Below, piece by piece: positions 3,501-64,000 of a stretch of 64,000 bases of DNA. The notes below the pieces were generated by a model. That model did no database searches. It was given only the letters and a program-made list of their open reading frames with translations, and had not been told where the DNA came from. The stretch comes from Mytilus trossulus (lineage: Eukaryota). The translations under genes were made by a program, and so were the position numbers. Location: positions 39,990,001-40,054,000 of the forward strand of contig NC_086381.1 in the NCBI RefSeq assembly GCF_036588685.1, read 5' to 3'. Numbering within the stretch: position 1 is the first letter of the stretch; each line of letters begins with the position of its first letter.

Positions 3501-5834
3501 CTTCCTTTCGAATATTCACGAATGTCCGTATGAGAAATCGACTTTACACTCAATGACTACATACATGTATATAATAAAGTAGACGAATTAAGGACAGTCT
3601 GGAGGATATTTAAACTCCAGTTCAGCCATATTGATATCTAAAATTATATAATACTAGACAAAGTCCAATGACCCGAGAATGCTTTTTGCACAGGTTCATT
3701 AAATGGAGCAAAGCATGCTCCACTTCCCCTCATTATTATCGGTCAACATTACATTATCATTCAACACACATACTATAATTATTATTGGTAATAATTCTGT
3801 TTATTTCTAGGTTTCATCACAAACATTTCCGGGTTTGCCTTGACAATGTGTTCATCGATGACAAATAATTATTGATCCGACACATATTCACACATTTAAC
3901 ACACTACACTATGTGTAAATAAGAATATTAGTTATGACATTGTAATTATAAATAAACAATTTACCTGAAAGTAGCTATAAACTTACCAAATTGGTCAAAA
4001 ACTGCGTTTCAAGATGGACAGATACGTGTACACACCAACCCTACCTAACTACACATGTGAGACGGAAGTTCAAGTTTAATACGATTTGCTGGCCGTATCG
4101 GTTGAATGATTTGTTCAAATAAAACCGGAGATTTAAATTCTTTTATATCCGACGCAACGAATAATTGATGAAATATCCTGTCTGTATGCAATTTAAAATT
4201 TAAATATTTTTTCAGTATTTTTGTAAAAGATGAAAGGTAAAGTTATGTTATCTTATACGTATATTTGATATATATTTTTAACCTTCACTTGTACACAAAA
4301 GGATTTAAAACATACAAATACAGGATACCGCCATTTGACTATTTGAGGGACAAAAAAGGGAATTTGAGTGATCAGTTATGCATCGTTCATGGACCACTGG
4401 AGGATATCTGAAGAAAACTACGATGAGTGCTGCTGTCTTTTTCCATATATATATTCACAGGTATCATCGATCGATACAAATCAATAAAAATGTATATTTA
4501 AATATGGTATGATTAAATTTTACGGTAAATTTGGTCGTGTATCATTTAAATATAGGGTCAAGGGTTAACAATGTATGAGCCAGTAATTACACTGATGATC
4601 CAATTCTGTCGGAATTTAATAAAAAAAAAAAAAAAGAAAATGAATCAGGATTAAATGAGAAATTTTATCAGTGTAAAATCCAAACGAAAGGACTGTACTG
4701 GAAACATACAAAAAAACTAATGTTACAATTAACAATTGATTTTTTTAAAAATTAATGCAAGCCGCGGACAACATTCTTCTTACATTGTCACGGGGTGTGA
4801 TGAGAACTGAAGGAAATACTTTTACTGCTATAATCATACTTTCTCATTTTAGTTTTTTCTAAAGTAGAAAGCATTTGTCCTATGTATACGCAAATAGAAA
4901 CATGCACGTTAACTCTAAGGAGTCACTTTTTGATTTTATTCCAAAGCGGCATAAAACTATGATCTATCGATGTATATGTTTCGTTGATATTCGCACCATG
5001 TATAGCGTTAATAGAAGATGGTATATTCGACCATTGGTACTTTTCCCTCAAACTTTGTACGCATTGTTTTAACGACAAATAATGAGGTCAGTGTGCAATG
5101 CTGTAGACTATGATTTCATTTAGCAATTATTTCAATTTTTCACATCGGAATAAGGAACGAAACCGAATACATGTTATCTTGGGAATAAGCGGGAAATATC
5201 TAGGGTGTTTTTTGTATTTTGTTTTGTTTCTTTGTTCAAATTGTTTATATCTTTTATTGTTGTGTTTTAAGGGGGGGGGGGGGGGGGGGTAAATGGTTTA
5301 TATCTTTTGTTATTGTTGTTGTGTTATGCTACAGAAGATGACTGATTAAATTAGTTGTAAGGCAATATTAAGTCACCTCTCTTCCTCCTTACGCTATAAT
5401 ATCGTTCTTATACAGGAAAATAACATAGATTATACTTATTCATAGCATATACATTCATTGTGGCTTATTATGACCATTTTAGGTAAATTGTCAAGTTGTT
5501 GATCATTCATGTGTAAATCCTATTCTTATACTCAAGACGAATAATAATTATATGTAGATGATCGTATGTGAGTGCTTGGTGATATATGGTGTAAACATTC
5601 TTAACGGAAACGCCTCTAATATTAATTTCGGCTTGAAAAACGTTCGGAAAGAAAAATACTTTAAAATTCTATTTTTGTTTTTGCATTGCTAGTCTTTAAA
5701 TTCACAAATAAGAGTTACAAAAAGGTGAGCCAGTTTAATTTTATTTTGATATTTGTTCCTGGTTCATTTCAATATAGACCATATAAACAAAACAAATACA
5801 CATGTTATGTATCAGGAGGTTGATGATGCTGTTT

Positions 5835-5981: not shown

Positions 5982-6534
5982 TGTTTGTTGTACAGTACAA
6001 CGTTTGTGAGATTGTCTTTTGGCTATGTAGCTATATATAGAGGTGCTTTAAATCTGTGATAAATATAGTCAATTAAAACAAAAGCACTGAACTTTAACAA
6101 GGCAAAATTGACTTGCAAAATTGTTAGAAATAAAGTTTACAAACAAAAGTTAGTTCTATACTTATAATAAATCATCAAAAGTCATACAGTTATATTCTGA
6201 AAAGAAAAGAAAAACGACCATTTTTCATTGAAGTTGCTTCATTTGTTGTATAAAGTAAAAGTGACCGTAAACCTCACTAGCATATACACACTGTGGACCT
6301 GAGCGCAGATTCGTAGTTGGTATCGTATCGTCAAACGGTGTTATTTTTCTCAACAAGGAGCTGGAATTATACTTCAGTTCACACTGAACCTATATATACG
6401 GGTATAATATGTTATTTATCAATGTAACCGAAATTATATGAAATTGCTAACTCCCGAAACGATTCACTGTCATGAGATGACAATTTCTAAACAATTTAAA
6501 CGTTTTGCGAAAACTTTCCATAGATAGTCCAAAT

Positions 6535-9085
6535 CTGATCACCAAGACAAGGTATACAAACAAGTCACTATCGAAACTGATCACCAAGACAAGGTAAACA
6601 AACAAGTCACATCCGAAACTAATTACCAAGACAAGGTATACAAACAAGTCACTATCGAAACTGATCATCAAGACCAGGTATACAAACAAGTCACTATCGA
6701 AACTGATCACCTAGACAAGGTATACCAACAAGTCACCATCGAAACTGATCACCAAGACAAGGTATACAAACAAGTCACATCCGAAACTAATCACCAAGAC
6801 AAGGTATACAAACAAGTCACTATCGAAACTGATCACCAAGACAAGGTATACAAACAAGTCACTTCCGAAACTGATCACCAAAACAAGGTTTACCGAAACT
6901 GATCATCAAGACAAGGTATACAAACAAGTCACTATCGAAACTGATCATCAAGACCAGGTATACAAACAAGTCACTATTGAAACTGATCACCAAGACCAGG
7001 GATACAAACAAGTCACATCCGAAACTAATCACCAAGACAAGGTATACAAACAAGTCACTACCGAAACTGATCACCAAGACAAGGTATACAAACAAGTCAC
7101 TATCGAAACTAATCACCAAGACAAGGTGTACAAACAAGTCACTATCGAAACTGATCACCAAGACAAGGTATACAAACAAGTCACTATCGAAACTAATCAC
7201 CAAGACAAGATATACAAACAAATCACTACCGAAACTAATCACCAAGACAAGGTATACAAACAAGTCACTATCGAAACTGATCATCAAGACCAGGGATACA
7301 AACAAGTCACTTCCGTAGCTGATCACCAAGACAAGGTATACAAACAAGTCACTATCGAAACTAATCACCAAGACAAGATATACAAACAAGTCACTACCGA
7401 AACTCATCACCAAGACAAGGTATACAAACAAGTCACTATCGAAACTGATCATCAAGACCAGAAATACAAACAAGTCACTACCGAAACTAATCACCAAGAC
7501 AAGGTATACAAACAAGTCACTATCGAAACTAATCACCACGACAAGATATACAAACAAGTCACTACCGAAACTAATCACCAAGACAAGGTATACAAACAAG
7601 TCACTATCGAAACTGATCATCAAGACCAGGGATACAAACAAGTCACTTCCGTATCTGATCACCAAGACAAGTTATACAAACAAATCACTAACGAAACTGA
7701 TCACCAAGACAAGGTATACAAACAAGTCACTATCGAAACTAATCACCAAGACAAGGTATACAAACAAGTCACTATCGAAACTAATCACCAAGACAAGGTA
7801 TACAAACAAGTCACTATCGAAACTGATCACCAAGACAAGGTATACAAACAAGTCACATCCGAAACTGATCACCAAGACAAGGTATACAAACAAGTCACTT
7901 TCGAAACTGATCACCAAGACAAGGTATACAAACAAGTCACATCCGAAGCTGATTATCAAGACAAGATATACAAACAAGTCACTTCCGAAACTGATCATCA
8001 AGACCAGGGATACAAACAAGTCACTTCCGAAGCTGATCAACAAGACAAGTTATACAAACAAGTCACTAACGAAACTGATCACCAAGACAAGGTATACAAA
8101 CAAGTCACTATCGAAACTAATCACCAAGACAAGTTATACAAACAAGTCACTATCGAAACTGATCACCAAGACAAGGTATACAAACAAGTCACTATCGAAA
8201 CTGATCACCAAGACAAGGTATACAAACAAGTCACTATCGAAACTGATCACAAAGACAAGGTATACAAACAAGTCACTAACGAAACTGATCACCAAGACAA
8301 GGTATACAAACAAGTCACTATCGAAACTGATCACCAAGACAAGGTATACAAACAAGTCACTAACAAAACTAATCACCAAGACAAGGTATACAAACAAGTC
8401 ACTATCGAAACTGATCACCAAGACAAGGTATACAAACAAGTCACATTCGAAACTGATCACCAAGACAAGGTACACAAACAAGTCACTATCGAAACTGATC
8501 ACCAAGACAAGGTATACAAACAAGTCACTATCGAAACTGATCACCAAGACAAGGTATACAAACAAGTCACTATCGAAACTGATCACCAAGACAAGGTATA
8601 CAAACAAGTCACTATCGAAACTGATCAGAAAGACAAGGTATACAAACAAGTCACTAACGAAACTGATCACCAAGACAAGGTATACAAACAAGTCACTATC
8701 GAAACTGATCACCAAGACAAGGTATACAAACAAGTCACTAACAAAACTAATCACCAAGACAAGGTATACAAACAAGTCACTATCGAAACTGATCACCAAG
8801 ACAAGGTATACAAACAAGTCACATTCGAAACTGATCACCAAGACAAGGTATACAAACAAGTCACTATCGAGACTAATCACCAAGACAAGGTATACAAACA
8901 AGTCACTATCGAAACTAATCACCAAGACAAGGTATACAAACAAGTCACTACCGAAACTAATCACCAAGACAAGGTATACAAACAAGTCACTACCGAGACA
9001 AGGTATACAAACAAGTCACTACCGAAACTTATCACCAAGACAAGGTATACAAACAAGTCACTATCGAAACTGATCACCAAGACAA
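6535..9085. repeat. 42-bp minisatellite, ~60 copies (GAAACTGATCACCAAGACAAGGTATACAAACAAGTCACTATC)
   Basis: Directly visible tandem array. It produces the repetitive ORFs on both strands. Confidence 0.97.
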
Positions 9086-9234
9086 TTAATTTACTTAATT
9101 TGAATTTATTATCGTTAATGAGTATATGTGCACCCATAATTTTGGTTCAAACATTAAGAGTTACGCACTTAAAACAATGAAACCAAATTTATTCAAACTC
9201 GATTACATGACTTAATGACCCATAAACGTTTCGG

Positions 9235-11395: not shown

Positions 11396-11806
11396 TTATC
11401 TGCCTACAGATTCCAGGTATTCTGCTATTTTGGAAACCGCTTCGTTGACAATGCCTTGTGAACCTCCTTCTTTTGTGTGGCCAATCACTATACCTGATTT
11501 AGAACTTTGTAATGTAAGTCCACCATTGTCTTTCTTTTTAGCAAGGACAATTTTTTTATCCATTTCTCTTAAAAATTGATATTTGACTCCACCAACGACT
11601 ACTCCGCTACTCGAAAGTGAAGAGAAATCGCCAGATTTAAGCACTTTTCCAATATTAACAGCTTCCTTTGCAGTAATCTTGAGGGCATTCTTATGGCCAT
11701 CTGTTGTCCATTTTGAACCATCGAGTCCTATAATACAAGCCTTGTCTGCATTCGATTTAGAGCGTTCTATTAAATTATCTATATAACTATCCCATGCAGC
11801 CGACAT
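11396..11806 (-). CDS. PFN: Profilin (136 aa), single coding exon
   Basis: MSAAWDSYIDNL...CIIGLDGSKWT...GVVVGGVKYQFLR...IVIGHTKEG..QG.VNEAVSKIAEYLESVG is a typical invertebrate profilin. Splice acceptor (TTTTTTTCCAG) 10 nt upstream of ATG. AATAAA at 11271-11276. Confidence 0.95.
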   Translation of the reverse strand: MSAAWDSYIDNLIERSKSNADKACIIGLDGSKWTTDGHKNALKITAKEAVNIGKVLKSGDFSSLSSSGVVVGGVKYQFLREMDKKIVLAKKKDNGGLTLQSSKSGIVIGHTKEGGSQGIVNEAVSKIAEYLESVGR

Positions 11807-12635
11807 TTTATCTTGACTGGAAAAAAGTTCCTAAAAATAAAATGTCTCATTATTATATTTCAAGTCATTACTATCAACTGTGATTGGCTCGACTTCAATC
11901 TTAATTTCCTAGAATGTAACGTTCGTTTTCTATCGAAGGTCGGTGGTGCCTCCACCAAGAAAATAGCACTGAAAGTGGCGTTTAATACCAATCAACTGTT
12001 TGTTAACTGATGTACTTTTGAAAATTTCACAAGACTAACTTCTGTCCCATTGGTGGATCCAGGACAGGTGTTCTTGTGGTTGGAACCCCTCTTTTTGTTT
12101 GGCAACCAATGATTTTGTATGGGTACATGTGATAAGAACCCCCCCCCCCCCTTTTTTATATGACTTGAATGTGTCTTGATCCGCACATGTATCCACGTTG
12201 GCTTAATGTATTTGTGATATATATGTTTTTTAGCCAGAATAATATATATTTTAATAATCTAGCTTTTTCACCATTTAAAAATCTGGTTCATTTACATCTT
12301 TGTAATTTAATAGAAGACAAAACAGGATATGCATACCGTTAGTGAATGTACTTTTTAACAATAAATTACAAATTCTAAATTATTCGTTTACCCACTTACA
12401 TATTGAATTTTATTTTGCTAGACATTTATTTGAAAAAAGTTATATCAAAATAAACAGAAAAATACGTTTTCTCCACCTGAAAATTCGACAAAAAGTATAA
12501 TATAAGAAATTATAGTAATAAAAATAAACTTTAAAATATTATACCACATCTCAATATAAGTGACTTGTAATCCGAGGTGTTTTCGGGAATGATTGATAGA
12601 CTATTCGTTGTTTCTCACCGCCTTATAACAAAACA

Positions 12636-13897: not shown

Positions 13898-14812
13898 AGT
13901 CTAATACTTCACGCGGACCTCCGGCTTGTCAACGGATCATCCGCTTACAATATTGACAATTAAGATGACGAAAGGGGTTTATCAAGTAAGAGAAAAAACA
14001 TCGGGTCTATAAATCCTGTTTTCGTATTTAAGAAAGATACATTTTATAATAAAATAAGGGTTTATCACATCCCAGTTCATTGCTACATAATCAATTGAGA
14101 TATCAAACCTTTTTTTTTAGAGTGAAATACATATCAAGTTAATTTGCAGTTTTAATAAACTATAAATGCGAAAATAATTTAGTTGTGTTGAATTTGAATA
14201 CAAGTATGATGTACCAAAACAGAGTCAGGTTTTGATAAAAAGGTTCTAACAAAAATACATTTTGTTCCTTAATGATTATTTTAAAGATTGAAAAAGGTAA
14301 AACTACTACTGGAGTATCAGTCCGCAATGCAGGGTAAACATCCGTTTTGGGGCCATATTAGACAATCAGTCACCGAGGGTATCATCCGCTAAGTAGCAAT
14401 GGTGTACTATCGTTCCCAAGGGTATCCTCCCCTAGGAGGCCAGTTGTTCGTTCATGTCTTGGGTTCTAAATGATACATTGTTGTCCTGAAAATGCATGAA
14501 ATATTTGCCACTGGACGTTATCAACCAACAATCAATCAGTATTATTGATACATTTTGTCATAAGTTTTCAGTTAATAAATATTATTATTTTACTAATCAA
14601 AGTAGACCTCGGACATTTTAGCAGTGTTGTTTGGGTACTTTTTGTTATGTGCTTTGTGACCCTTTTGTACATAGGATGCAGGTTATTCTAGAAACGTGTG
14701 TATAAAACATTCTGTTTCATACTTGGTCGCTACCGACAACTATCAAACATACATGTATGACAGGGATAAAACAAATTGCAGGTTTCTTACTGCCTCTAAA
14801 ATTATAACCAAT

Positions 14813-15347
14813 GACTTAATCCACTTCGTCACAAGGGGGACATAGGGCGACTACATAGTCGTTTCTGTAACGTAATATTTTTTACAAGTTAGGGGTTTTG
14901 TCCCTAAGCTAAACCTTCTACGTGAAGGGTCGGGTTGTTCTGTAGGGGTTTTCAATCCCGTAGACGATTGCTGTTGCTAGCGAGTTCCATCTACCCAGAT
15001 TTTCTGTTTGGATTAACTTCCATAGCCTTTGCCTATTCACAGGTCACCCACAAGGCATTGGGGAATTTAACCCATAGCTGGGGCAAGGTTAATGAGAGCC
15101 AGGTCGTATCCACTCGCCGGTGGGCCTGAACTCTGCATCTCTAAGGCTCTTGCTGCTCTGAGATCCCTTGCATATTAGCCTGAGATACTAGACCCCAGTA
15201 TCTGTGTATTGCCGCGAGAAGGCATTGCAAGAGTCACGATGGTGTAGAGGCTTTGTACCAGCAGGATAGGCTGCCGCACTGGGCTCTCTTTTCGTCCACA
15301 AAGTGGACTGGCTGATGGTGGGTGTGAAGTCTATGACCTCACCACAC
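14813..15347 (-). mobile_element. Non-autonomous RTE-type LINE derivative (5' UTR fused to 3' tail), TSD-flanked
   Basis: GC-rich island. RTE-like 3' end GCCCTATGTCCCC...GGATTAAG and an RTE-like 5'UTR-end motif at ~14878-14940. Direct repeat AAATTATAACCAAT at 14799-14812 and 15354-15367. Confidence 0.65.
15167..15347 (-). ncRNA. HDV-like ribozyme fold (probably partly degenerate) at element 5' end
   Basis: P3/L3 GCC-TTCTCGC-GGC; P1 GTGTGGT/AATACAC (6 of 7 pairs, long J1/2); P2 CTTGCA/TGCAAG; P4 AGATACTG/TAGTATCT; J4/2 CTAAT. P1.1 is imperfect. Confidence 0.55.
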
Positions 15348-15674
15348 TCTAATAAATTATAACCAATATTTGATATATTTATCATGGCATGCAAGGTCCC
15401 CGGAGAACAAAATGTGAGTCAATTTAAGAGAAAAAAATAGCTGCACGACTTTCGTTAATATTCTTCAAAAATTAAAAGCTCATCAAATTTAAAGTTTTTG
15501 AACAAGATTGTGTTCATTATGCTCTGTAATATGCTAGTAAATTTTATTTTCATACGGAAGTAAAAGTATGTATATTAATTGCAGCTAATGTTGTTGTTTA
15601 AAAATGTTCAACTATGAGTAAACAATATGTTGATTTTATAAATTGTTTCTACTTTTATGTATACAATTATAGTT

Positions 15675-15885
15675 TTATTGGCTATATGTCTGCATTTCAA
15701 CTTGGTCAGGTTTCTCCAGATCCTCATACGTATTGGGAGGTTCAAGTTCTAGATATGGTCTCTCTGAAGACGTGTCACTACCAGATCTAGATGTATCAAC
15801 ACGTTCATTTTCATTTTCTGTATCGTCACGGTATACTTGACTTTGTATGCTCTGAATGTCTTCATAAATAGAAATGTGTTGCAAG
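15675..15885 (-). CDS. IgSF receptor last exon: cytoplasmic Tyr motifs
   Basis: SIYEDI ... PYLELEPPNTYEDL; TTTCAG acceptor, phase 2. Confidence 0.8.
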
Positions 15886-18800
15886 CTGAAATGAATATAT
15901 TTTAAAATTTTGTTTCTCAATTTTATAATCATTCATGGATCATACAAAGCAATAGAGTAGTTATTCCTTCTGCTTAAATGAGTTACATACATATGTAAAA
16001 TACATTTTATCATTTTGTCTAACAAAGGAACCGGATTTCAATTGAGGAAGTCCAATAAACAGGGAAAAGTTGAAATAGGTTTAGTTAAGAACGTGCACCA
16101 GACATCCATGACATATAAAACAGTACAATGTAATTCTTCATTATAGAGTGTTAGAATGGTTCCCTATTCTTTATCTGTTTGGCTCTGACAACTGTCTCGG
16201 CTGTACGTTTGTTGCAAGGGAACCAGCCTACATATTGTCATAGATGGGTTTATACATTTATGGTATAGTGTATACTTGAAATGTTGTTTTTTTGTTGTTG
16301 GTGGAATTGATATATGCAATCTGCAAAATTAATTTGCCCAAAAATAACATGGGTGCATAGAGAACGTTCCGGGAAAAGTTATTTTTTTCATAACAGGAAG
16401 AAAATCGTTCTTATATTTATGAGTGGTTGTTGAGGAAACTATTAAAATGTATACTACGAATAGATTTTAATCTAAAATTAAGACAATTAATATATGATCT
16501 ATTAAGAATGTCTCTCTTTATACATTTGTTTGTATTTAATACTAGAAACTTGTGAAACTATATACATTTTTGTTAAAATAAAAGGATTTCTTATTCTAGT
16601 GTGACATAACTTCAGTGCAGCTCTTACTTTTTTATTATAATTGAGGACCATAGAAGAAAACTCAATTATATCATTAGATGCGTGACAGTCGACAAAATTT
16701 ATGCCAGTGCTTTTTTCTTCCAAAAAATCTGTTGAAGTTTTACCTGTTTTCATCGTCTGGTTCTTGTTGTAATACTTCAGCTGTTACAACTTCTTGACTA
16801 AAACATGAAAGTAAAATTACAATAAGAGAATTATTATAATTATCATTGTAAAACCACCCATTTTATCATTTAATAAGTAGCTGCATTCTTATTATAATCA
16901 CGTAACTATTGTAGGTTACAATAAACCTTTAGAATGTATAGGCGCAGACATTTTATGAAGATGATGCAGCCGTTTTATGGAGATGATAGCATGGTATTCA
17001 GAATTAATATTATGACTATTCTGATTGGTCAATATGTGCGCCTTGGTCGATATGTGCGCCCGTTATTTATTATTATTATTATTAGAGACTTCGTGCATTC
17101 TGCATTATACCAAAGGCCAAATAAATTATTTTCTTAGACTTAACGAAACTGAGATGTCTTTTCAACGCTAGAATGAGACACGCATGTTTAGTGCAAAATT
17201 GGTAGGCATGGGAGATATAAGTACAAATTACGTATAGAAAAGTCACTGGAGCGTAAATCTTTTGAACTAAAAATACTGTCCGAAACATTTTTTAATTGAT
17301 TGTAGCAAGGTTTCGTTATAAAAAAAAAAACAGTTTTCTTAAATCTGTAATTCCAGTGGTGTCCAGGTGGGGCCCGGGGATTGAAACCTCCTTTTTTAAC
17401 AATCAATGCATTTGAATGGGGACATAAATTTGGAACCCCCTTAAAAATTCTGGGTTGGGACCACACCCTTTGTAAAAAAAATACTTGATTCGCTCCCGCA
17501 TATCTATAGTAGTAAATGGCAAACAAAGATTTCGAAAAGATTGAATATGAGAATATGATAGGAACTGCTTAAAACCATAACCCATCAGCGATCCACTACT
17601 CTTTATCCTTTCAAACGTTAAATAAATGATTGAAGACTGTGCACACATTTTCCATACATAATTGTACAATGAAACGCGATATTATGTATCTGATTAAATA
17701 CAAGTGCTATCATATACATATTCATTTGATAAATATTAAATTATATACTGGATTTATGACACACTTTATACGGTTAAGATATAAAACTATAACTAAACAT
17801 TTATAAGGGGGACATTCAGATAAAGTGATTTACAATGGCTTACCATGACCCATTTAGACAAGTTATCTTATTAATTTATAACAGTGGAAATTGATATCTG
17901 AGATGATATAATTTCTATATTATACACATGAAATAAAACAATACAATACCTGTGTCCAGTTGTATCTACCGAGTCTAAAGCAGGGGGTGGAACATACCTA
18001 ACATGTGGAGAAAAAAAGAAATGCATAATAACATAAATGTCTTTGATTTGACTGCTAACTTACAAAATAATAACACAGAACGAACAACGTATTTTTTTTT
18101 TTTGTATTTGAGTATCTTTTTTTGTTACCTGCTCTTCAACTTATACACATGTAGTAACACTTACGGTACCAATTTTCTTGCACCAGATGCGCATTTCGAC
18201 AATACATGTCTCTTCAGTGATGCTCGTGGCGTAAATATTTGAAATCCAAAGCTAATATAAAAGATGAAGAGCTATAATCCAAAAGGTCCAAAAAGTATAG
18301 CCAAATCCGTGAAAGGAATGAGAGCTTTGCATGAGGGAGATACATTCCTTAATTTATAATAATTTCTATCATTTTGTAACAGAAAATTTTAATAACACAA
18401 AAAATCCGTATTTTCATGCCAGTACCGAAGTACTGGTACTGGCTAAGGGCTGGTGATACCCTCGGGGACTAATAGTCTACCAGCAGAGGCATCGACCCAG
18501 TGGTAGTAATTACATTTACGGTACAAATTTTCTTGCACCAGATGCGCATTTCGACAATACATGTCTCTTCAGTGATGCTCGTGGCCAAAATATTTGAAAT
18601 CCAAAGCTAATATAAAAGATGAAGAGCTGTAATCCAAAAGGTCCAAAAAGTATAGCCAAATCCGTGTAAGGAATGAGAGCTTTGCATGAGGGAGATACAT
18701 TCCTTAATTTATAATAATTTCTATCATTTTGTAACAGAAAATTTTAATAACACAAAAAATCCGTATTTTCATGCCAGTACCGAAGTACTGGCTACTGGGC

Positions 18801-21800
18801 TGGTGATACCGTCGGGGACTAATAGTCCACCAGCAGAGGCATCGACCCAGTGGTAGTAATAACATTTACGGTACCAATTTTCTTGCACCAGATGCGCATT
18901 TCGACAATACATGTCTCTTCAGTGATGCTCGCGGCCAACATATTTGAAATCCAAAGCTAACATAAAAGATGAAGAGCTATAATCCAAAAGGTCCGAAAAA
19001 GTATAGCCAAATCCGTGAAAGGAATGAGAGCTTTGCATGAGGGAGATACATTCATTAATTTATAATAATTTCTATCATTTTGTAACAGAAAATTTTAATA
19101 ACACAAAAAATCCGTATTTTCATTCCAGTACTTCGGTACTGGCTACTGGGCTGGTGATACCCTCGGGGACTAATAGTCCACCAGCAGAGGCATCGACCCA
19201 GTGGTAGTAATAACATTTACGGTACCAATTTTCTTGCACCAGATGCGCATTTCGACAATACATGTCTCTTCAGTGATGCTCGTGGCGTAAATATTTGAAA
19301 TCCAAAGCTAATATAAAAGATGAAGAGCTATAATCCAAAAGGTCCAAAAAGTATAGCCAAATCCGTGAAAGGAATGAGAGCTTATAGATATAGACAGGTG
19401 AGAAATTTAACTGATGCCTTCAAAATTTACATTTTTGCACTTGAGCCCATTCAGCATATTACAAAACAAAATGACTGTATTTTTTTTTCTGTCTATGAAA
19501 AATAACATAAAAAATGTCGGTAACATTATTTTAAAGTGTGCACCAAATTTGTTATGTTATTTCGAATAGACAGAAAAAATGTTTCAATTATTTCTAATAA
19601 TTAAATTCTAAATTCCGTTTTAAACCGGATTAAACCATAAAAAAAGGTTGATGATGTCACGTTCACATGACTAAATTATGGCCATGAGCTGACAAACAAA
19701 GCAACGTCAGCCAATTAGAAGACGTTACATCCAAAATTTAACTATTTACTAATAAATAGAATAACAAAAATAACAGACTCCATGGAAAATTCAATACAGA
19801 AAGTCTGTTAACAAATGACAGAAAAAAAAAGCTCAAACACACCAAACTATAAATGGAAAACAACTATCATATTCTTGAATTGGCACATGAACATCCCTAT
19901 GTAGAAAATAAGCTGTTTTTTTTACTAGTGCCAGTTTGGAGTGTAATGGTTATAAAAAGGAAACTTTATAATTAAATTGCATAATTAATAGATGGTACTC
20001 ATGTAAACTGAGAGTTCACCAAGTGTGGTACTGATCTATAGTGTAATACCGGTATGCCTTTGTCTTTTGTCTGAAAATCCCTTCATGATTGACAGAGTTC
20101 GCTCGCCAACATAACTTTGGAATACTAAAACCTATACGATTGAACTGTATTCTATCGGTAGGTTTTAAAAACTGTGTCCAATAAAACTTTTCAACATGTA
20201 TAAAAAGTTAAGCATTCGTCGAAAGCATTGCAACCTTTTAAGAAACGGTACCGACTATGGTGCGGGTAAAAGAGGTTGGAAACAGTTATCCACTGTCAGC
20301 TGAATTGACACAGACACGTCTAAAACTGTTTCTGAGTCTATCCCACAGCTGCATGGATCTTAGTTCAAGTAAGTAATTGGAGTTTATGGAAAATGTTTTT
20401 TTTTTCTAATTCGTCGTTTAATACTCGTATAGCTAGTAGTTTACCAAAAACTTTCAAGAACTCTTTAAATAAGTCATGCTATTGATTTCAACGTTCAAAA
20501 TTGAAGATTTTAGAAGAGCTTATTTTGGCGATGTAGCTCTCAATACGTTCATGTTCATTACTTTGAGTTTAGCTTGAATATGAAAATCATAAAATCTTTG
20601 AAATAATTTGCATGTAATTTAAAGTTAGCAATTTGAAGTTAAATATTTTTATTCGGAATTAACTTTACAACATATTTGGTTGCACAAAGGTAATACGGAA
20701 GCCATTTGTATAAATGTTGCAACTATTTTATTTGGATATATACTTCTTAACAAGGTCCGAATATGGTATTTGTCTGTAACTAAACTCTTCATTGATACCA
20801 GACTTAACACAATTGTACGCCAGACGCTGAACCTATGTTTAAGTGTTAAACGTGAAGTGTTACAACACTGAAGCATTTTCTATTATATGAAACAAGGAGA
20901 TAGTATAGTACATCTGTAAGATTCTGTCCTGATATAAAGTTAAAGAAATACATTTTTTGGTCTGAATTCTAGCCGACCTACATGCTTTATGACGACTTTC
21001 ATTTATTCTTGAGATGAAATTTCGTGCGAAAATTGTGGCTTATGTGTATCGATATATCTAGTTTATTTGTATTCATATGCAACGGATAGGAGTTAATCCT
21101 ACTTGTACACGGACGCATCAATATTGAATTTATTTTACAAGTGTATTTGATATCTTAACCTTTACTCTTAGTACAGAAAGCAATAGATTTAGATTAAAGG
21201 TGATAAGATGACAAAATCAATACTCTGGGCGTCTCTTTGGTGTTTAATAATATTGTACCTGTCCAGTTAAATATCACAATATATTCATATGCTTTTGCAA
21301 GCCTACTATACCTTGTTGTACTCTAAACTCATTCTGTGGAAAGAAACACTGTTTAACACTTATACTTATCTTGTGATACTATCTTCGTTAGCTGTGCTCG
21401 ATATACTACCACTATAAATACAACAATAATCGTAAGACCAAGAAAAGCACCAACCGTTCCATAAGCATAATCCAGCCGACTTTTAACTACAAATACAATA
21501 ATACACAAACGAAATGAAGCAGTTCTTGTGCAGGTGTAGTATACAGAGAAAAAAATGCATATGTTTAACTCTACATAATTTATATTGCTTCAAATCGCTT
21601 GTTTGTAGTATGTTTTTGAATATACTCATACAATAAAAATTATGCTCGTTCAGTTTTGGTGAATATTAATCTTATAGACAAGACCTGTTTTCCAAGTCAT
21701 AGGAAGAAAGTTGTAGATGGATTTTCATTTCATAAGATAAAAAAGCTTAACAATTATTACTTTTAATCAAGATGCCTTTGCATTACAGTTTTTGTCTGCT

Positions 21801-52031: not shown

Positions 52032-55000
52032 TTAAAATGTTGCCATAGTTGTTCCACATTCAGTTGTGAGGTGATCGCGCATCACTATGGCCTTAGTGAA
52101 ACAAAAGTGGGATACAGAAATTGGTAGTGTTTCTTGCATTGGTATAACAATTTCGGATTTTAGATCATACAGCATCATGTCTTTTCGTGAACTGAACGAA
52201 ACCTCTCCGCCGCAAATCAAGATCTTGTCCTCAAAACAGCACGCTCCAAATCCTTTCCTATCAAAATTAGTTATCTTCGATATTGGTCGTGTGCTGTCTA
52301 TTTCGGAACATTTCAAAACGGTTCCATCCTTACAAACAACTATCATCTGCTCTTTGTAGTTGACCGCTTTGGAATTTAGTCGTGCAAAATCTGGTAACTT
52401 ATACGAAACTGTGTAGCTTTGTTCCGATTCGCAGTTAAAACATTGAATCGCATCGGAAAGTGTGCTTTCGGACAGAAACCCGCCAAATAAATATACTTTC
52501 TTTCCAACACAAGTGTGAGCTGGTGATCTAACAGGTTTATTCAATCTAGTTCTACAGCATATCCATGTATTCGTGGCAATATTGAATCTCAAAACACTAT
52601 TCGTGCACCCCTGGTCGTCCTTACCGCCAAATACGTAGACGTTATCGAAGGCATACATCACGTGATATTGTTTTTCCTTTGGTAAATGTTGAAGCTGATG
52701 CCACTCATTCTTTTGGCCATCAAATTTTAAAAAGACAGTTTTCCCGCCAGTTCCTTTATACGGTCCGGGTCCGGAACCACCTGACACATAAATGTCGAGG
52801 CCTCTCGAACACATGGCAAAATTATAACCAGGGTCTAATGGCAATGGTTTTAGAGAAAACCAAATCTTTTGTGGAAAACTAAACCCCATAACACTGCAGT
52901 TATTTCCACCCTCACTGCCTCCAATTACCATTAATACATCGTCTGCTGGTGTAGAAAACCCACCATCATCTTGCAAATTAGAATTGTGACGCGATCTCAA
53001 GTCTTCTATCATTCGCAATATATCATGATTGGTAGAGAATTGTTCAATCTTGATAGCCTCTTCGTATATGTCTTTCGCAGACACTCTAATTTTCATCATA
53101 GCCTCGCATAGTTTTGAGAAACATTGAATACGATTTTCGAAATCCGCAACTATCCAGGAAAATGAGACTTGACAAAATAAACCACTTCTATCTACAACAT
53201 TTATATTATCAGATTCCAAAATAGATATAAGAGTATCAACTGTACCTATTTCATCAAGTTTGGCTTCACTGTTAGCAATTTCGGCAAAATGTTTAAGAAT
53301 TAAAGATCGTGCTATCTCGGCCAGATCTGCAGTTTCGCCATGATTCTGTGCAACCTGCCAAACATGTACACAGTTAGACTTGTCAGCATGTTTACTTAGA
53401 AACTGCTTGCATATCGTATGGAGAGACTTTATTTGCATCATGTGGCCCACATGGAGAAGGATGTCAGCATTACCCATGTTAACCACCCTAGGTTCACCAG
53501 TATAAATAAACTTTAACAAATCTGAGCAACTGTCTTCATCTAATAGCATACCATCCAGGGAAACTCGACCAGTTTTTGTTTCCTGAAATAATAAATTGCA
53601 AGATTTAATTGGTCATAAAACAGGTCATTTCTCATAAAAAAAATATCAAGTAACTCATAACACAAACATACTATTGATGTATGAACAATAAGATTACCTG
53701 ATAGTGCTAACAATACAATTGATTTATAAACAAAGTACCTGATAGTGCAACCGAAGCATACCATTGGTGTTTGAACAGAGAACCTGTATGCCAAAAACCA
53801 CACAATTGCTTTTCTTGACAAAGAACCTGATAGCACAAACAACACCACTGTTTTACCAAAAAATTACCTGATAGCACCAATTGGTTGGCCATCACATTTA
53901 AAAACAAAAGCAGTTTCCCCGCTTGTTCTTTTATACGGTCCTAAACCGGAACAACCTGAAACATGCATGTCTAGGCCTTAAGGATAGTGCAAACCATACC
54001 ATTGATTTATAAACCTACGAGGTACATTATAAAACAACCATCAAACTATATATATACTTTGGACACGAGCACCAATGCAAGGACATTAATTGTCGAAATA
54101 CGCCTCTAAAGCAGTAAAACTAGAACCGATATTGTTATTACTTTTTTTTTTAAATTACGTTTCTTTATGTCTATGATTCATCCTGGGACTTTTATAAAAT
54201 GTTTTGAATTATAATAGTCCCAGATGCATCCCAGTGTTAGATGCTATTTTAGCTTTGTAAACATAGTCATTTTCTAATTCCAATAAAACATCGGGTGCAC
54301 GTGATAGACGCTGTGAATAGTATGTTAATATATTAATTATGTTCCAGATTGAAGTTAAAAAATTATATTCTCAATTATTATAGTATTATGAATGTGAACA
54401 ATCTGACAATGTCGGTGATCAAAATGATATGCTTGCTACGCTAGAAAATCAAATACAATTATTCTTTTCTTTTTTATTCAATCGGAAACGAATCCTCATC
54501 AGTGATTTTTTAACCAGAATCATCATACATGACGTTCAAAAACGCAGCCTCGCCCGATCGAAATGACATAGTAAATAAGAAAGTAACAAAACTGTCTGCT
54601 CTTACATGTAATTCTTTGATGGTTATTGGATTACTTATTTGAGCAAAATTTAAGTCCTTAACGACAAACGCGCATTTTTTAAATTATAATTCATTTTTTC
54701 TTCATCTGGTCTAAATGAGATGATGGTTGAGTCTTAAAAATGCTCGCCAAACTGGAACTTCAAGACCTACAGTCAGGGCAGAAGCTAATATTTCGCCAGT
54801 ACAAAGTGGTTGAGGGGCTGGTTTCAGCTATAGAACCCGATATATATTTTAAAAAGCACAACCTAAAAGAACACTTACTGCCCAAGCAATGACAATTATC
54901 AGACAATAAATATTGTGGAAAAACAAGTTATGAAAAAAGTGTTTTGAAATTTCAACGAGCAAAACACCATGATATTCAAATTAATTCTCGTAAAAAAACA

Positions 55001-57410: not shown

Positions 57411-59750
57411 ACCGGTACTGGGCGGATCCGGTAATTTCTACTTTCACTTTTTGAAAAAAATCTCCTATGTGGAGATAGATTTGTACGCTTTTATTTACAT
57501 TAATCTGCGAAAGAAAATACACGTCGTGCTCAGTTGTTGAAGTGGCTTTCTTCCCAGTACTTCAGAGCACACATAACGTCTAAAACGTAAAAAAAACCAT
57601 GTGAAAGGTTTGCAAAATAATGCATTGTAGCAATGAAAACATACATGATCAACTTTAAATGCAAAATAACATTTAAAACTAGGAAAGGAGGCTAACCCCC
57701 CCCCCCCCCCCCCCCCCCTTCTTTTCCTTTTCCAACTAAAAAATGTGATTTGGTTCAAAAGAGTCCGACAATAAATTCTTTTTATGTGTATTTATCATGT
57801 CAGTGTGCATAGGAGGTGACCAAATGATTTCTTGCGGCGTCAAGAAAGTCTTAAAAATATTGTTATGGATCGTGCATGTATGAGGGGGGATAGGGCCTTT
57901 ATCAGGACTCCAGGATCTGGTGTTTTTAGGCTCAGGGTTTCGGGATCTATTAAGAGATACAGGAATTCTTTTTTTGAATTACTAGTACTGGATGTCAGAA
58001 TTTAGATTTATTTAAATTCGGGATTTCATGTTGAAGGGATCAGGACCCCTCCTACCCCTAGTCATGTATGAGGGTGATACTTGTAATCCCTGGGAAATCG
58101 GGAAATCACAAATAACCGTTAGAAAAAATTGGCAAATGACGTTTATAACAGTAATTTTTGGTGCATGACTATAAAAAAGTACACATTCCTTTAGGTGATA
58201 TCAAAATCAATTAATTTTGACACTGTCTAGAGTGGATAAATATCGTATTGCAAAAGATTATGTGGTGAAATCTGTTTCTCTGTCTTCATGTCGTCACAAT
58301 GGGAATTTCAGATAATAGCCTGAAAATTTGACGTCATAATCAAATATTGACCAATGAACAACTAAGATCAAACTAACCACACCTAGATTAAATGAAAATA
58401 ATCATCAGGTCGGGAATGCCATAAAACGAGTTAAAAAAATCTTCATAGTAAAAAAAATATTTATTTTTTATCACCAATGTAAACATATATCACCATTGTA
58501 TATATATATCACCATTACAAACATCTATCACCAGTGTATATATCTATCATCCTACTGTTTTTATATATATCACCAATATAAATATCTATCACCTCACTTT
58601 ATTTATCACTACACTATATATTACCAATATATTAAAATCTCGAAACTGAATATATCTAACATCACTCTGTATATTTATCAACACTAAAAATCTATCAACA
58701 CACTGTATAATAATCACCATTCTGTATCAGTCACCACTTTGTACAACACTGTATATCTCTATCACCATGCTATATATTTATCACCATTCTGTATTAATCA
58801 CCACTTTTTACAACACTGTATATATCTATCACCATGCTATATATTTATCACCACTCTATAAATCTATCAACATATGTTTATATTTAAAACCGCTGTATAT
58901 ATTTATCACCATTCTGTATTTATCACCACTCTGTAAAAGGCTGTATATATATTCTGTCACCATACTTTATATATCTGTCACCAGACTTAGTATTTCTGTC
59001 AATACACTTAACATATCCATCACCACACTTTATATATCAATCACTTGGCTATATATATCTATCACCTGATCTATTTATATATCAATCACCTCACTATATA
59101 TATCTGCCACCATACTTTATATATATGTCACCACACTTAATATATATGTCACTTCACTATATATATCTGTCACCATACTTTATATATCTGTCACCATACT
59201 TTATATATCTGTCATTACACTTAACATATCCTTCACCACACTTTATATATCCATCACCTCACTATATATATCTATCACCTCACTTTATATATCTATCACT
59301 ACTCTTTATATATCTGTCACCAGACTATATATCTATCCCCACACTTTATATATTCATCACCTCACTATATATCTGTCACCATACTTTATATATATGTCAC
59401 CAGACTTTATTTATCTGTCACCATACTTTATATATCTGTCACCATACTTTATATATCTGTCACCATACTTTATATATCTGTCATTACACTTAACATATCC
59501 ATCACCACACTTTATATATCCATCACCTCACTATATATATCTATCACCTCACTTTATATATCTATCACTTCTCTTTATATATCTGTCACCAGACTATATA
59601 TCTATCCCCACACTTTATATATTCATCACCTCACTATATATCTGTCACCATACTTTATATATATATGTCACCAGACTTTATTTATCTGTCACTATACTTT
59701 ATATATCTGTCACCATACTTTATATATCTGTCACAATACTTTATATATTC

Positions 59751-60183
59751 ATTGTGTAATCATACGTTTTTTTATTGAGTTAAGTCTGCAAATTGATATT
59801 TTATCGTGTGTTTTTCTATGTTGTGATGTTATGCTATTGTTTCAGAAAAAGGGAGAAGGTTTGGATCCATTAAAACGTTTAATCCCGCTGCAAATGTTTG
59901 CACCTGTCCTAAGTCAGGAATCTGATGTACAGTAGTTGTCGTTTGTTTATGTAATATATATGTGTTTCTCTTTTCTTGTTTTGTTTATATAGATTAGACC
60001 GTTGGTTTTCCCGTTTGAATGGTTTTACACTAGTAATTTTGGGGCCCTTTATAGCTTGTTGTTCGGTGTGAGCCGAGGCTCCGTGTTGAAGGCCGTACTT
60101 TAACCTATAATGGTTTACTTTTTAAATTGTTATTTGGATGGAGAGCTGTCTCATTGGCACTCACACCACATCTTCCTATATCT
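59751..60183. mobile_element. Dispersed repeat inserted in satellite
   Basis: Non-satellite block. Its end is the reverse complement of the family at 186-570, and it carries the CCTGTCCTAAGTCAGG motif. Confidence 0.7.
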
Positions 60184-60954
60184 ATTTATATATCTGTCAC
60201 CTCACTATGTATATCCTTCACCACACTTTATATATCTGCCACCTCACTATATATAACTGTCATCAAACTATATATATCTGTCACCAGACTTTATTTATCT
60301 GTCACCATACTTTATATATCTGTCAACATACTTTATATATCTGTCACCAGACTTTATTTATCTGTCACCATACTTTATATATCTGTCACCATACTTTATA
60401 TATCTGTCACCATACATTATATATCTGTCACCATACTTTATATATCTGTCACCACACTTTATATATCTGTCACCTCACTATATATAACTGTCACCTCACT
60501 TTATATATCTATCACTATACTTTATATATCTGTCACCAGACTTTATATATCTATCCCCACACTTTATATATCCATCACCTTACTATATATCTGTCACCAT
60601 ACTTTACATATCTGTCACCAGACTTTATATTTTTGTCATTATCAAACCGCAATTTTTATATGTGTGTATGTCAAACAAATTTTGTTGTATAATGGTCTAA
60701 AAACAGCACAAACAACAAACAAAAACACCAAAAAAGTGAAAAAGTATATTTAAACAAAACGCATTTAACTAACAGGTCGAACAACTGATGTTCTTTTACC
60801 CTGCTGACTGCCATTGGCGATTGTCAAATTAAATTGATCACAAGATGTAACAAAATGGATCTTAATTTAAATTTAATACTAAACAGAAATTTTTTTTGTT
60901 AACTTGTGGCCAAGATGTTGTGCTACAAACATATGGTGTCAATATTTCTTTAGT

Positions 60955-60998
60955 ACACCAGATCCGGATTTCGACAATAAATGTCTCTTCAGTGATGT
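60955..60998 (-). ncRNA. Type I hammerhead ribozyme (family C, intact)
   Basis: ACAUCA-CUGAAGA-GACA uuuau UGUC-GAAA-UCCGGA-UC^UGGUGU. Confidence 0.88.
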
Positions 60999-61525
60999 TG
61001 GGGATCGAAACGGTATTTGGAAGGCCATTTCAACAGTTCCCTCATTTTTAGAAAAAATACCCTAATTTTTTTAATAACTCTTGAATTTTAAGAGTCAATA
61101 TAGGATGAACGGATCATATAAACCGGAGGGAAAATATGATACATGCCCAAACAAAAAATATAAAGGAGTCTAAATTGAAAGCTACCTTCAAACCTATGAT
61201 TGCGTTGGATAAAAACCACAATTTTTATAGGTGTGCATGTCAAACAAATTTCGTTGTAGAAGGGTCTAAAAACAGCACAAACAACATTTTCCAAAAGACC
61301 AAAACAGTGAAAAAGTATATTTAAACAAAATGCATTTGACTAACAAGTCGAACAACTGATGTTCTTTAACCCTGCTGACTGCCATTGGCGATTGCCAAAT
61401 AAAATTGATCACATGATGTAACAAAATGGATCTTAATATAAATATAATACTAAACAGAAAAAAAAATTGTTAACTTGTGGCCAAGATGTTGTGCCACAAA
61501 CATATGGTGTCAATATTTCCTTAGT

Positions 61526-61569
61526 ACACCAGATCCGGTTTTCGACAATAAATGTCTCTTCAGTGATGT
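61526..61569 (-). ncRNA. Type I hammerhead ribozyme (family C, stem III point change)
   Basis: Same as above but GAAA-ACCGGA-UC, which breaks the stem III palindrome. Confidence 0.7.
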
Positions 61570-64000
61570 TATGTTTCAAAACGGTACTTGGAAGGCCATA
61601 TCAACAGTACCCTCATTTTTAGAAAAAGTACCCTCATTTTTTGATAACTCTTGAATTTAAAGAGTCAATATAGGATGAACGGATCATATAAACCAGAGGG
61701 AAAATCACTATATATATCAATCACCACACTTTATATGTCTGTCACTAGTCTTTATATATCTGTCACTACACTTTACATGTCCATCACCACACTTTATATA
61801 TCGATCACCTCACTATATATATCTATCACCTCACTTTATATATCTGTCACCATACTTTATATATCTGTCACTATACTTTATATATCTGTCATAACACTTT
61901 ATATATCCATCACCTCACTATATATATCTGTCACCATACTTTATATATCTGTCACTATACTTTATATATCTGTCACCATACTTAACATATCTTTCACCAG
62001 ACTTAATATTTCTGTCAATACACTTAACAAATCCATCACCACACTTTATATATCAATCACCTCACTATATATATCTATAACCTGATCACTTTATAAATCA
62101 ATCATCTCACTATATATATCTGTCACCATACTTTATATATATGTCACCACACTTTATATATCCATCACCTCACTATATATATCTGTCACCATACTTTATA
62201 TATCTGTCACTATACTTTAAAAATCTGTTATTACACTTCACATATCCATCACCACACTTTATATATCCATCACCTCACTATATATATATCTATCACCTCA
62301 CTTTATATATCTATCACTACTCTTTATATATCTGTCACAAGACTATAAATCTATCCCACACTTTATGTATCCATCACCTCACTATATATATGTCACCACA
62401 CTTTATATATCCATCACCTCACTATATATATCTGTCACCATACTTTATATATCTGTCACTATACTTTAAAAATCTGTTATTACACTTCACATATCCATCA
62501 CCACACTTTATATATCCATCACCTCACTATATATATATCTATCACCTCACTTTATATATCTATCACTACTCTTTATATATCTGTCACAAGACTATATATC
62601 TATCCCACACTTTATATATCAATCACCTCACTATATATATCTGTCACCACACTTAACATATTCATCATCAGACTTTATATATCTGTCACCATACTTTATA
62701 TATCTGTCACCACACCTTATATAACTGTCACCATACTTTTTATATCTATCACCACACCTTATATATCTGTCACCAGACTTTTTATATCTATCACCATTCT
62801 ATATATATCTATCACCACACCTTATTTATCCATCACCAGACATTATATATCCATCACGTTACTATATATATATCTCTCACCTCACTTTATATATCTGTCA
62901 CCATACTTTATATATCTGTCACTATACTTTAAAAATCTGTCATTACACTTCACATATCCATCATCACACTTTATATATCCATCACCTCACTATATATATC
63001 TATCACCTCACTTTATATATCTATCACTACTCTTTATATATCTGTCACAAGACTATAAATCTATCCCACACTTTATATATCCATCACCTCACTATATATC
63101 TGTCACCATACTTTATATATCCATCACCTCACTATATATATCTGTCACCATACTTAACATATCTTTCACCAGACTTAATATTTCTGTCAATACACTTAAC
63201 AAATCCATCACCACACTTTATATATCAATCACCTCACTATATATATCTATAACCTGATCACTTTATAAATCAATCATCTCACTATATATATCTGTCACCA
63301 TACTTTATATATATGTCACCACACTTTATATATCCATCACCTCACTATATATATCTGTCACCATACTTTATATATCTGTCACTATGCTTTAAAAATCAAA
63401 TCTGTTATTACACTTCACATATCCATCACCACACTTTATATATCCATCACCTCACTATATATATATCTATCACCTCACTTTAAATATCTATCACTACTCT
63501 TTATATATCTGTCACAAGACTATAAATCTATCCCACACTTTATTTATCCATCACCTCACTATATATCTGTCACCATACTTTATATATCCATCACCTCACT
63601 ATATATATCTGCCACCATACTTTATATATCTGTCACCAGACTTTATTTTTTTGTCAATACACTTAACATATCCATCACCACACTTTATATATCAATAACC
63701 TCACTATATATATCCATCTCCACACTTTATATGTCTGTCACCAGACTTAATATATCTGTCACCACACTTAACATGTCCATCACCACACTTTATATGTCTG
63801 TCACCAGACTTAATATATCTGTCACCACACTTAACATGTCCATCACCACACTTTATATATCAATCACCTCACTATATATATCTGTCACCAGACTTTATAT
63901 ATCCATCACCTTACTGTATATATCTGTCACCAGACTTTATATATCAATCACCTCACTATATATATCTGTCACCACACTTAACATATTCATCATCAGACTT

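Follow-up and report, generated by a model that had tools for sequence, protein, structure and literature searches.

A two-part RTE copy in Mytilus trossulus and a predicted helix between the ends of RTE RNAs

The insert and the genes around it

The window analysed here is a stretch of 64,000 nucleotides of the Mytilus trossulus genome (contig NC_086381.1, positions 39,990,001 to 40,054,000 of the forward strand), and positions are counted from its first letter. A multi-exon gene for an Ig-domain receptor occupies 15675-40373 on the minus strand, with a transmembrane exon near 21480-21370 and three tyrosine motifs in the cytoplasmic tail. One of its introns holds three to four tandem units of ~360 bp (18150-19420, minus strand), and units like these apparently also border several unrelated loci. 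Downstream of the insert studied here, and on the same strand, lies an intron-less profilin frame of 144 codons (11399-11830; PF00235, E 5e-27), and a single 526-codon frame at 52035-53612 (minus strand) appears BTB-Kelch-like by eye. Long minisatellite arrays at 6500-9200 and 58300-64000 produce spurious open frames. On the plus strand, at 14481-14540 and 270 nt from the insert, a fragment of a very high-copy short repeat ends in an ATCA-type microsatellite; its summed contig depth was about 20,000 times that of its flanks, and we take it to resemble the tail of a SINE.

The features of the insert and of its immediate surroundings are collected in Table 1. The candidate poly(A) signal of the receptor gene lies 195 nt upstream of the insert on the same strand, in agreement with a preliminary description, made from the sequence alone, which had placed the element in sense orientation about 200 bp downstream of that signal and had suggested its expression by read-through as a possibility. 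The same description had reported a GC-rich, ORF-less element of RTE origin flanked by a target-site duplication (TSD) of at least 14 bp, and these properties were all confirmed: the insert, about 540 bases in size, has a GC content of 44-50% against about 30% in its flanks, no frame of at least 100 aa overlaps it, an exact 14-bp direct repeat encloses it, and it aligns over its whole length to an autonomous RTE LINE. The extension of the TSD by which the G1 then proposed would have become the first nucleotide of the element did not hold, as the full extension (14794-14798 / 15347-15351) contains a 2-nt indel and takes in that G1 as a 2-nt microhomology with the target. The 5'-UTR part of the insert is 93% identical to its parent, L032 of family A (34 differences in 493 columns), and of the tail repeat only the first unit is present, after the stop codon. 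Contigs of all four sequencing runs compared (two studies, one of them possibly the source of the assembly) contain the insert, each crossing an insert boundary, and one contig spans the internal junction; no empty allele was found among the contigs of these four runs, which is not proof of fixation. The insert is a dead, ordinary two-part RTE copy, truncated at its 5' end.

Table 1 Positions of the insert, its parts and neighbouring features in the window
Feature	Position	Strand	Remark
Target-site duplication, element 3' side	14799..14812		14 bp; to 14794 if a 2-nt indel is allowed
Target-site duplication, element 5' side	15354..15367		exact 14-bp match to 14799..14812
Whole insert	14813..15348	minus	5'-truncated, internally deleted RTE LINE copy, family A, parent L032
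3' tail part of insert	14813..14855	minus	parent nt 3527 to about 3570: last codons, hairpin, stop codon, tail unit
Local hairpin in tail part	14841-14828	minus
3' arm of predicted long-range helix	14848..14855	minus	8/9 nt kept; parent 3527-3534; last-codon coding sequence
Deletion junction inside insert	14856/14855	minus	parent 534 joined straight to 3527
5'-UTR part of insert	14856..15348	minus	parent L032 nt 42-534
5' arm remnant of predicted long-range helix	14856..14861	minus	6/9 nt kept; parent 529-534
Conserved TAC(A/G)GAAAC motif	14861..14869	minus	stands before the 5' arm in RTE families of this genome
Conserved RTE 5'-UTR motif	15065..15081	minus	matches 23-bp RTE-like sequence of Kojima 2018 (PMC5786205, accessible part)
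HDV-like core	15167..15231	minus	from family alignment
P2 3' strand	ends 15167	minus
Catalytic C (C75 equivalent)	15178	minus
P4	15198-15194 with 15184-15180	minus
P1.1 3' strand	15203-15202	minus
P1 3' strand	15210-15204	minus
P3/L3	15223-15211	minus	L3 at 15220-15214
P2 5' strand	15231-15224	minus
GUGUGGU, P1 strand of the preliminary description	15341..15347	minus	parent nt 43-49, within J1/2
AATAAA, candidate poly(A) signal of receptor gene	15543..15548	minus
AATAAA, further copy	15679-15674	minus
Last coding exon (likely)	15675..15884	minus	Ig-domain receptor with tyrosine-motif cytoplasmic tail

The parent LINE and its predicted HDV-like ribozyme

A search of the same genome with the insert returned at least 42 matches (40 of 271 candidates scored), and extension of these matches led to an autonomous element of 3.58 kb whose copies are 96-98% identical to each other. 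Its representative, L032, contains an intact frame of 1050 codons with the domains PF03372 (APE endonuclease), PF00078 (reverse transcriptase) and DUF6451; the stop codon leads directly into a tail of 4-5-nt repeats, and TSDs flank the copies. Judged by its sequence features, namely the single APE-RT ORF, the short 3' UTR with short repeat tail and TSD, and the 5'-UTR domain, the parent is a member of the RTE clade, and it supplies both parts of the insert, so that the autonomous RTE sharing both ends of the element, whose existence had been anticipated, is present in this genome. Two other runs (X3 and X15) show an empty-site allele of one intact full-length copy (L032:147-3755), which is hence polymorphic, indicating that family A inserted recently. 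The loci L137 and L138 (G000:C13), in opposite orientation and 2.4 Mb apart, have a common 3' flank and represent a segmental duplication, not two insertions.

RTE LINEs with HDV-like ribozymes at their 5' end have been described (PMC5786205, PMC6765202; published sources are cited here and below from their accessible parts). We aligned nine rows, corresponding to eight families and the window copy, and found the pairs of an HDV-like double pseudoknot formed in 94.5% of cells, compared with 29-50% in slid controls, counts which the relatedness of the rows inflates. By helix, paired cells amounted to 100% in P1, 94% in P2, 100% in P4, 94% in P1.1 and 74% in P3, and both-sided changes were observed twice in P1, three times in P2 and once in P4, among nine rows of related families. 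P3 forms only two of its three pairs in 7 of the 9 rows, the middle pair being C-A in six and the first pair U-U in family A. The descriptor for HDV-like ribozymes asks for U..CG in L3 and a catalytic C in J4/2 (PMC6326823); all nine rows carry the U, C and G of L3 as well as the C that follows P4, beyond which the bases depart from C-R-R-A. It is in this J4/2 and in the weak P3 that the family differs from known HDV-like ribozymes, from which the window copy differs also in having neither the P1 5' strand nor P1.1. A descriptor search recovered the ribozyme in 9 of the 13 elements, and an Rfam scan of 14300-15900 (E up to 10) gave no ribozyme match and one chance match to a snoRNA. J1/2 measures about 150 nt and contains covarying hairpins according to RNAalifold, which is unable to represent the pseudoknot; drz-Agam-2-1 (PMC4908430) is alike in that its double pseudoknot begins at the first nucleotide of the element and its J1/2 is structured. 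Seen through this alignment, the family carries an HDV-like fold, and the positions of 5' ends at G1 give indirect support to the predicted self-cleavage: nine family-A copies start at nt 1 (six copies), nt 4 (one), nt 42 (the window copy) and nt 61 (one), and, of six full-length copies examined, four have a TSD lying no more than 1 nt from G1. The first five bases of P1 have a second possible partner in a conserved 5-mer that ends J1/2 (L032:178-345; alignment A2, columns 1-5 with 157-161), and such an alternative helix, as modelled, could delay or gate cleavage.

The preliminary description had placed the minus-strand core correctly, including L3 and the C75 equivalent, and its forecast that P1 and P1.1 would be restored in the family, with 5' ends gathering at G1, agrees with the figures just given. 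Its suspicion of an imperfect P1.1 was also borne out, as both C-G pairs are altered in the window copy, to U-G and C-A, by a C to U change in L3 at 15219 and a G to A change at 15203; a further change, U to A at 15173, creates a mismatch in P2. Its P1 5' strand had to be replaced, since the 7-mer chosen has one mismatch to the P1 3' strand (-3.5 vs -5.2 kcal/mol) and is not the P1 of the family, which is formed by parent nt 1-7, 41-42 nt further 5', and pairs fully with the P1 3' strand; its P4 register was superseded by the family alignment. The window copy begins 41-42 nt downstream of G1, and so the ribozyme does not start at the insertion boundary, as had been proposed, and its P1 strand is absent. 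With P1 5' missing and both P1.1 pairs changed, the window copy is predicted not to self-cleave, and its ribozyme is likely dead. We interpret the 5' end of this copy as an ordinary truncation at the 2-nt target microhomology.

Predicted pairing of the RTE ends and the breakpoints of short copies

In family A, a perfect 9-bp complementarity links nt 529-537 to nt 3526-3534. The 5' arm follows directly after TAC(A/G)GAAA and the 3' arm consists of the codons before the C-terminal Ala/Gly, so that the predicted helix, of 8-12 bp in the families compared, would join the end of the 5' UTR with the last codons, 3.0 kb apart. The arms are family-specific: in four other families different bases follow the same motif and are still complementary to the pre-C-terminal codons, the motif itself being more conserved than the arms. 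The anchors of the arms were fixed on these five families, and six more were then fetched; of 52 loci examined, near-identical copies were removed and the 13 that had both the motif and the C-terminus were retained, 9 of them being counted as separate families. Cognate 16-nt arms formed the best duplex of their row in 9/9 families (mean -13.1 vs -4.2 kcal/mol), and only 1 of 362,880 permutations of the arms was as good, a figure that should not be taken as a count of independent events because the families share ancestry. In 12 of the 13 elements, moreover, no better partner than the cognate site was present anywhere in the 3 kb downstream, and a both-sided change of the arms, which alters an amino acid, separates the sister families E and K. 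In families D and F the helix is interrupted and weak (-9.7 and -7.8 kcal/mol, respectively). Minimum-energy folding of whole elements yielded the helix in 2 of 6 families (A and G), and it was absent from the folds of E, C, I and D.

Similar complementarity was found outside this genome. Among 80 loci on metagenome contigs, 11 extended to both ORF ends, and six representatives of these were scored in a blind scan, in which the best partner of the 3' arm was located at the motif in L214 (-17.1) and L224 (-21.4) and, weakly, in L230/L233 (-7.9); in L253 two other sites ranked above that of the motif, and in L236 the motif was not found. The printed sequences in the accessible supplement of PMC5786205, inspected by eye and with no control, have complementary ends spanning 9-10 bp in BovB (813-821 with 3797-3805) and in turtle and alligator RTE, namely RTE-1_PSi (177-185 with 3726-3734) and RTE-3_AMi (282-291 with 3854-3863), and these last two differ by a both-sided change in the complementary ends. 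About 7 of the 14 two-part SINEs of that paper showed by eye a clear hairpin spanning the junction, which was weak or not seen in the rest; the Bov-A junction also shows an 8-nt direct similarity. As a prediction from sequence complementarity, the end-to-end helix of RTE RNAs is well supported. No 5'-3' helix in RTE was found in the literature searched, whose scope leaves subscription papers, patents, Repbase notes and bioRxiv supplements as places that may mention one. Local 3' hairpins, and no 5'-3' pairing, were found in the accessible parts of PMC6007223, PMC3414825, PMC13708176, PMC7245038, PMC4844689, PMC3747384, PMC4758252 and bioRxiv 10.1101/2022.11.04.512097.

The short copies of family A break beside these arms. 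Six such copies have 5' breakpoints at 534, 536, 557, 557, about 572 and 582, and all of their 3' breakpoints fall within 3523-3532, with no direct repeats. A pattern consisting of motif and tail within a set gap was scored against control patterns and gave 16 matches (2 in the control) for gaps of 4-34 nt and 1 match (0 in the control) for gaps of 35-64 nt. RTE 5'-UTR sequence lies upstream in 15 of those 16 matches, with six families represented; L168, which has no RTE sequence upstream, was discarded as a chance match. The junction strings of the two-part copies are all distinct, two of them differing by a single base, and the microhomology at the junctions amounts to 0-2 nt. TSDs of 10-15 bp were found around seven two-part copies, the calls for L159, L160, L161, L171, L173 and L174 being judged unreliable. 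Contigs of other runs carry more joints between the 5'-arm region and the 3' arm. Splicing was rejected as the cause of the deletion, the junction ends having no GT and the AG being retained. Internal deletions unrelated to the arms occur in L034, L035, L037, L100 and L107; in the last of these (family B), ORF nt 2749 is joined to a segment of the ribozyme region, nt 77-194, whose end lies at P1.1.

A census of tails, made with an anchor downstream of the arm, gave 69 exact tail sites, of which 66 were scored. At 17 of the 66 sites the first break lay 19-31 nt upstream of the anchor, that is, inside or beside the 3' arm (which spans 15-23), compared with 2 sites that broke closer to the end and 4 within the following 153 nt (binomial 1.7e-15, the interval having been chosen after the fact). 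Thirteen of these 17 are tail-only insertions of about 50 nt, seven of them with a TSD of 11-20 bp, and four are two-part copies. Many breaks lie 4-6 nt into the arm and not at its start. It should be considered that the distance between the 3' arm and the 3' end hardly varies across all the families, and for this reason a stall at the helix and a fixed-distance stop or protein footprint are indistinguishable in the census. Such a pile-up of breakpoints was not found in the literature searched, with subscription papers, patents and Repbase notes outside its scope.

Origin of the two-part copies

We consider it probable that the insert is a one-off, 5'-truncated RTE copy, produced when the reverse transcriptase stalled at the predicted 9-bp helix and jumped over the looped-out ORF. 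The ribozyme would cut the parent RNA out of host transcripts, and the arms would then pair, closing the RNA into a loop. Priming at the 3' end would run for about 45-55 nt before reaching the helix, where the enzyme might abort, leaving a tail-only insertion, might jump to the tethered 5' UTR, 0-50 nt from the 5' arm, giving a two-part copy, or may also read through. The window copy stops about 41 nt short of G1, at a 2-nt microhomology, and later lost both P1.1 pairs. The very short microhomology at the junctions fits this model, in which 3'-arm cDNA has the sense of the 5' arm and cannot anneal there, and R2 provides a documented case of template jumping by a non-LTR enzyme (PMC3414825). 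As regards the reason for such a clasp, our best guess is selection for holding both ends together for TPRT, rather than for translation of uncapped RNA or for cis preference. We lean, by a little, towards a broader proposal: in RTE RNAs from molluscs to mammals, a covarying clasp of the ends would loop out the ORF, present both ends to the RTE protein and act as the main roadblock of TPRT, shedding ~50-nt tails and ORF-less two-part copies in each round, which would account for the fact that bipartite SINEs come chiefly from RTE.

The helix might also be real and not be what stops the enzyme. The breaks would then mark a fixed early step, such as the switch from initiation to elongation, the edge of a protein footprint or cleavage of the RNA next to the duplex; the protein would also hold the GAAAC motif, and by this contact the 5' UTR would be captured. 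The almost constant distance of the arm to the 3' end, the many breaks inside the arm, the stronger conservation of the motif and the binding of both UTRs by the R2 protein (PMC6765202) would all suit such a step; however, the 5' breakpoints also gather at the partner arm, as seen in the drop from 16 matches at 4-34 nt to 1 at 35-64 nt, and only 2/66 sites break nearer the end. We hold this explanation, the main rival, to be unlikely. Far less weight attaches to the view of the preliminary description, a promoter-less SINE-like family starting at its own ribozyme cut and amplified by the RTE machinery. Templates of this kind do exist, given that L002, L005 and L163 are two-part, TSD-flanked copies with 5' ends at or no more than 3 nt from G1, and amplified two-part RTE families have been published (PMC5786205). 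Nevertheless, no second copy of the 534/3527 junction appeared either in a junction-spanning search (40 of 101 candidates scored) or, at any other locus, in an exact pattern search of the whole genome; junctions differ between copies, and the window copy has lost P1 5' and both P1.1 pairs. No small-RNA-derived head with a Pol III promoter was found either, the entire insert aligning to the LINE and Rfam giving no match.

Very little also speaks for a full-length insertion that later lost its middle by deletion at the DNA level. At 7% divergence the copy is old enough, and unrelated internal deletions are present in the family, but the 3' breakpoints of six family-A copies lie within 10 nt with no direct repeats, tail-only insertions with a TSD end at the same place, which a deletion after insertion leaves unexplained, and a 9-bp inverted repeat with its halves 3 kb apart would not be expected to pair in duplex DNA. 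As for the 5' end of the window copy, we find it barely credible that the ribozyme produced it by cutting at an alternative P1 (parent nt 43-49). This 7-mer is the only 6/7 partner of the P1 3' strand in about 430 nt upstream in the window, and the copy starts no more than 1 nt from it, but only 1/9 family-A 5' ends falls there, the true P1 strand pairs more strongly and precedes the 7-mer in transcription, and truncation at the target microhomology accounts for the end.

Several published systems invite comparison. ORF-less bipartite derivatives of RTE, and SINEs built on them (RTE-N, RTESINE, Bov-A, WALLSI), were reported by Kojima in 2018 (PMC5786205), who states that they arise "for unknown reasons"; the terms "hairpin" and "base pair" are absent from the accessible text of that paper. 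They resemble the copies described here in joining a 5'-UTR part to the last ~45 nt of an RTE LINE, in having no ORF and in carrying a TSD and a microsatellite tail, but they are amplified, whereas the short copies found here have differing junctions and form no amplified family. Drosophila R2 SIDEs (PMC3414825) likewise fuse a ribozyme-bearing 5' end to a non-LTR 3' end, and template jumping has been offered as one origin for them; they differ in being site-specific, amplified families with unrelated middle sequence, and 5'-3' complementarity is unmentioned in the accessible part of that source. The pairing between the 5' and 3' ends of HIV-1 genomic RNA (PMC1976439) is a similar case of long-range pairing that loops a retroelement RNA, although HIV-1 is an LTR retrovirus, while the elements studied here are non-LTR, their 3' arm is coding and a probable footprint of the predicted pairing is seen in insertion breakpoints. 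Two-part RTE derivatives and RTE-borne HDV-like ribozymes are already published.

The clasp of the ends would give a concrete reason for how two-part RTE derivatives arise, and this genome would catch the process in the act, with independent two-part and tail-only insertions breaking at the same few bases. The helix also points to a cis-acting element of RTE RNA that overlaps coding sequence and tracks amino-acid changes. Opossum RTE-1 has been turned into a gene-writing tool with the payload placed between the 5' and 3' UTRs (PMC13708176); should a clasp exist in that element, it would matter for how efficient the templates are and for products that are truncated or skip the payload, and, if the end-clasp reading is true, it would provide a design rule for RTE-based gene-writing templates.

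A separate observation concerns family B, in which the breaks of L109, L113 and L187 lie 273 nt upstream of the tail anchor; two of these copies share the exact base and have different flanks, and this position is possibly a second stall site.
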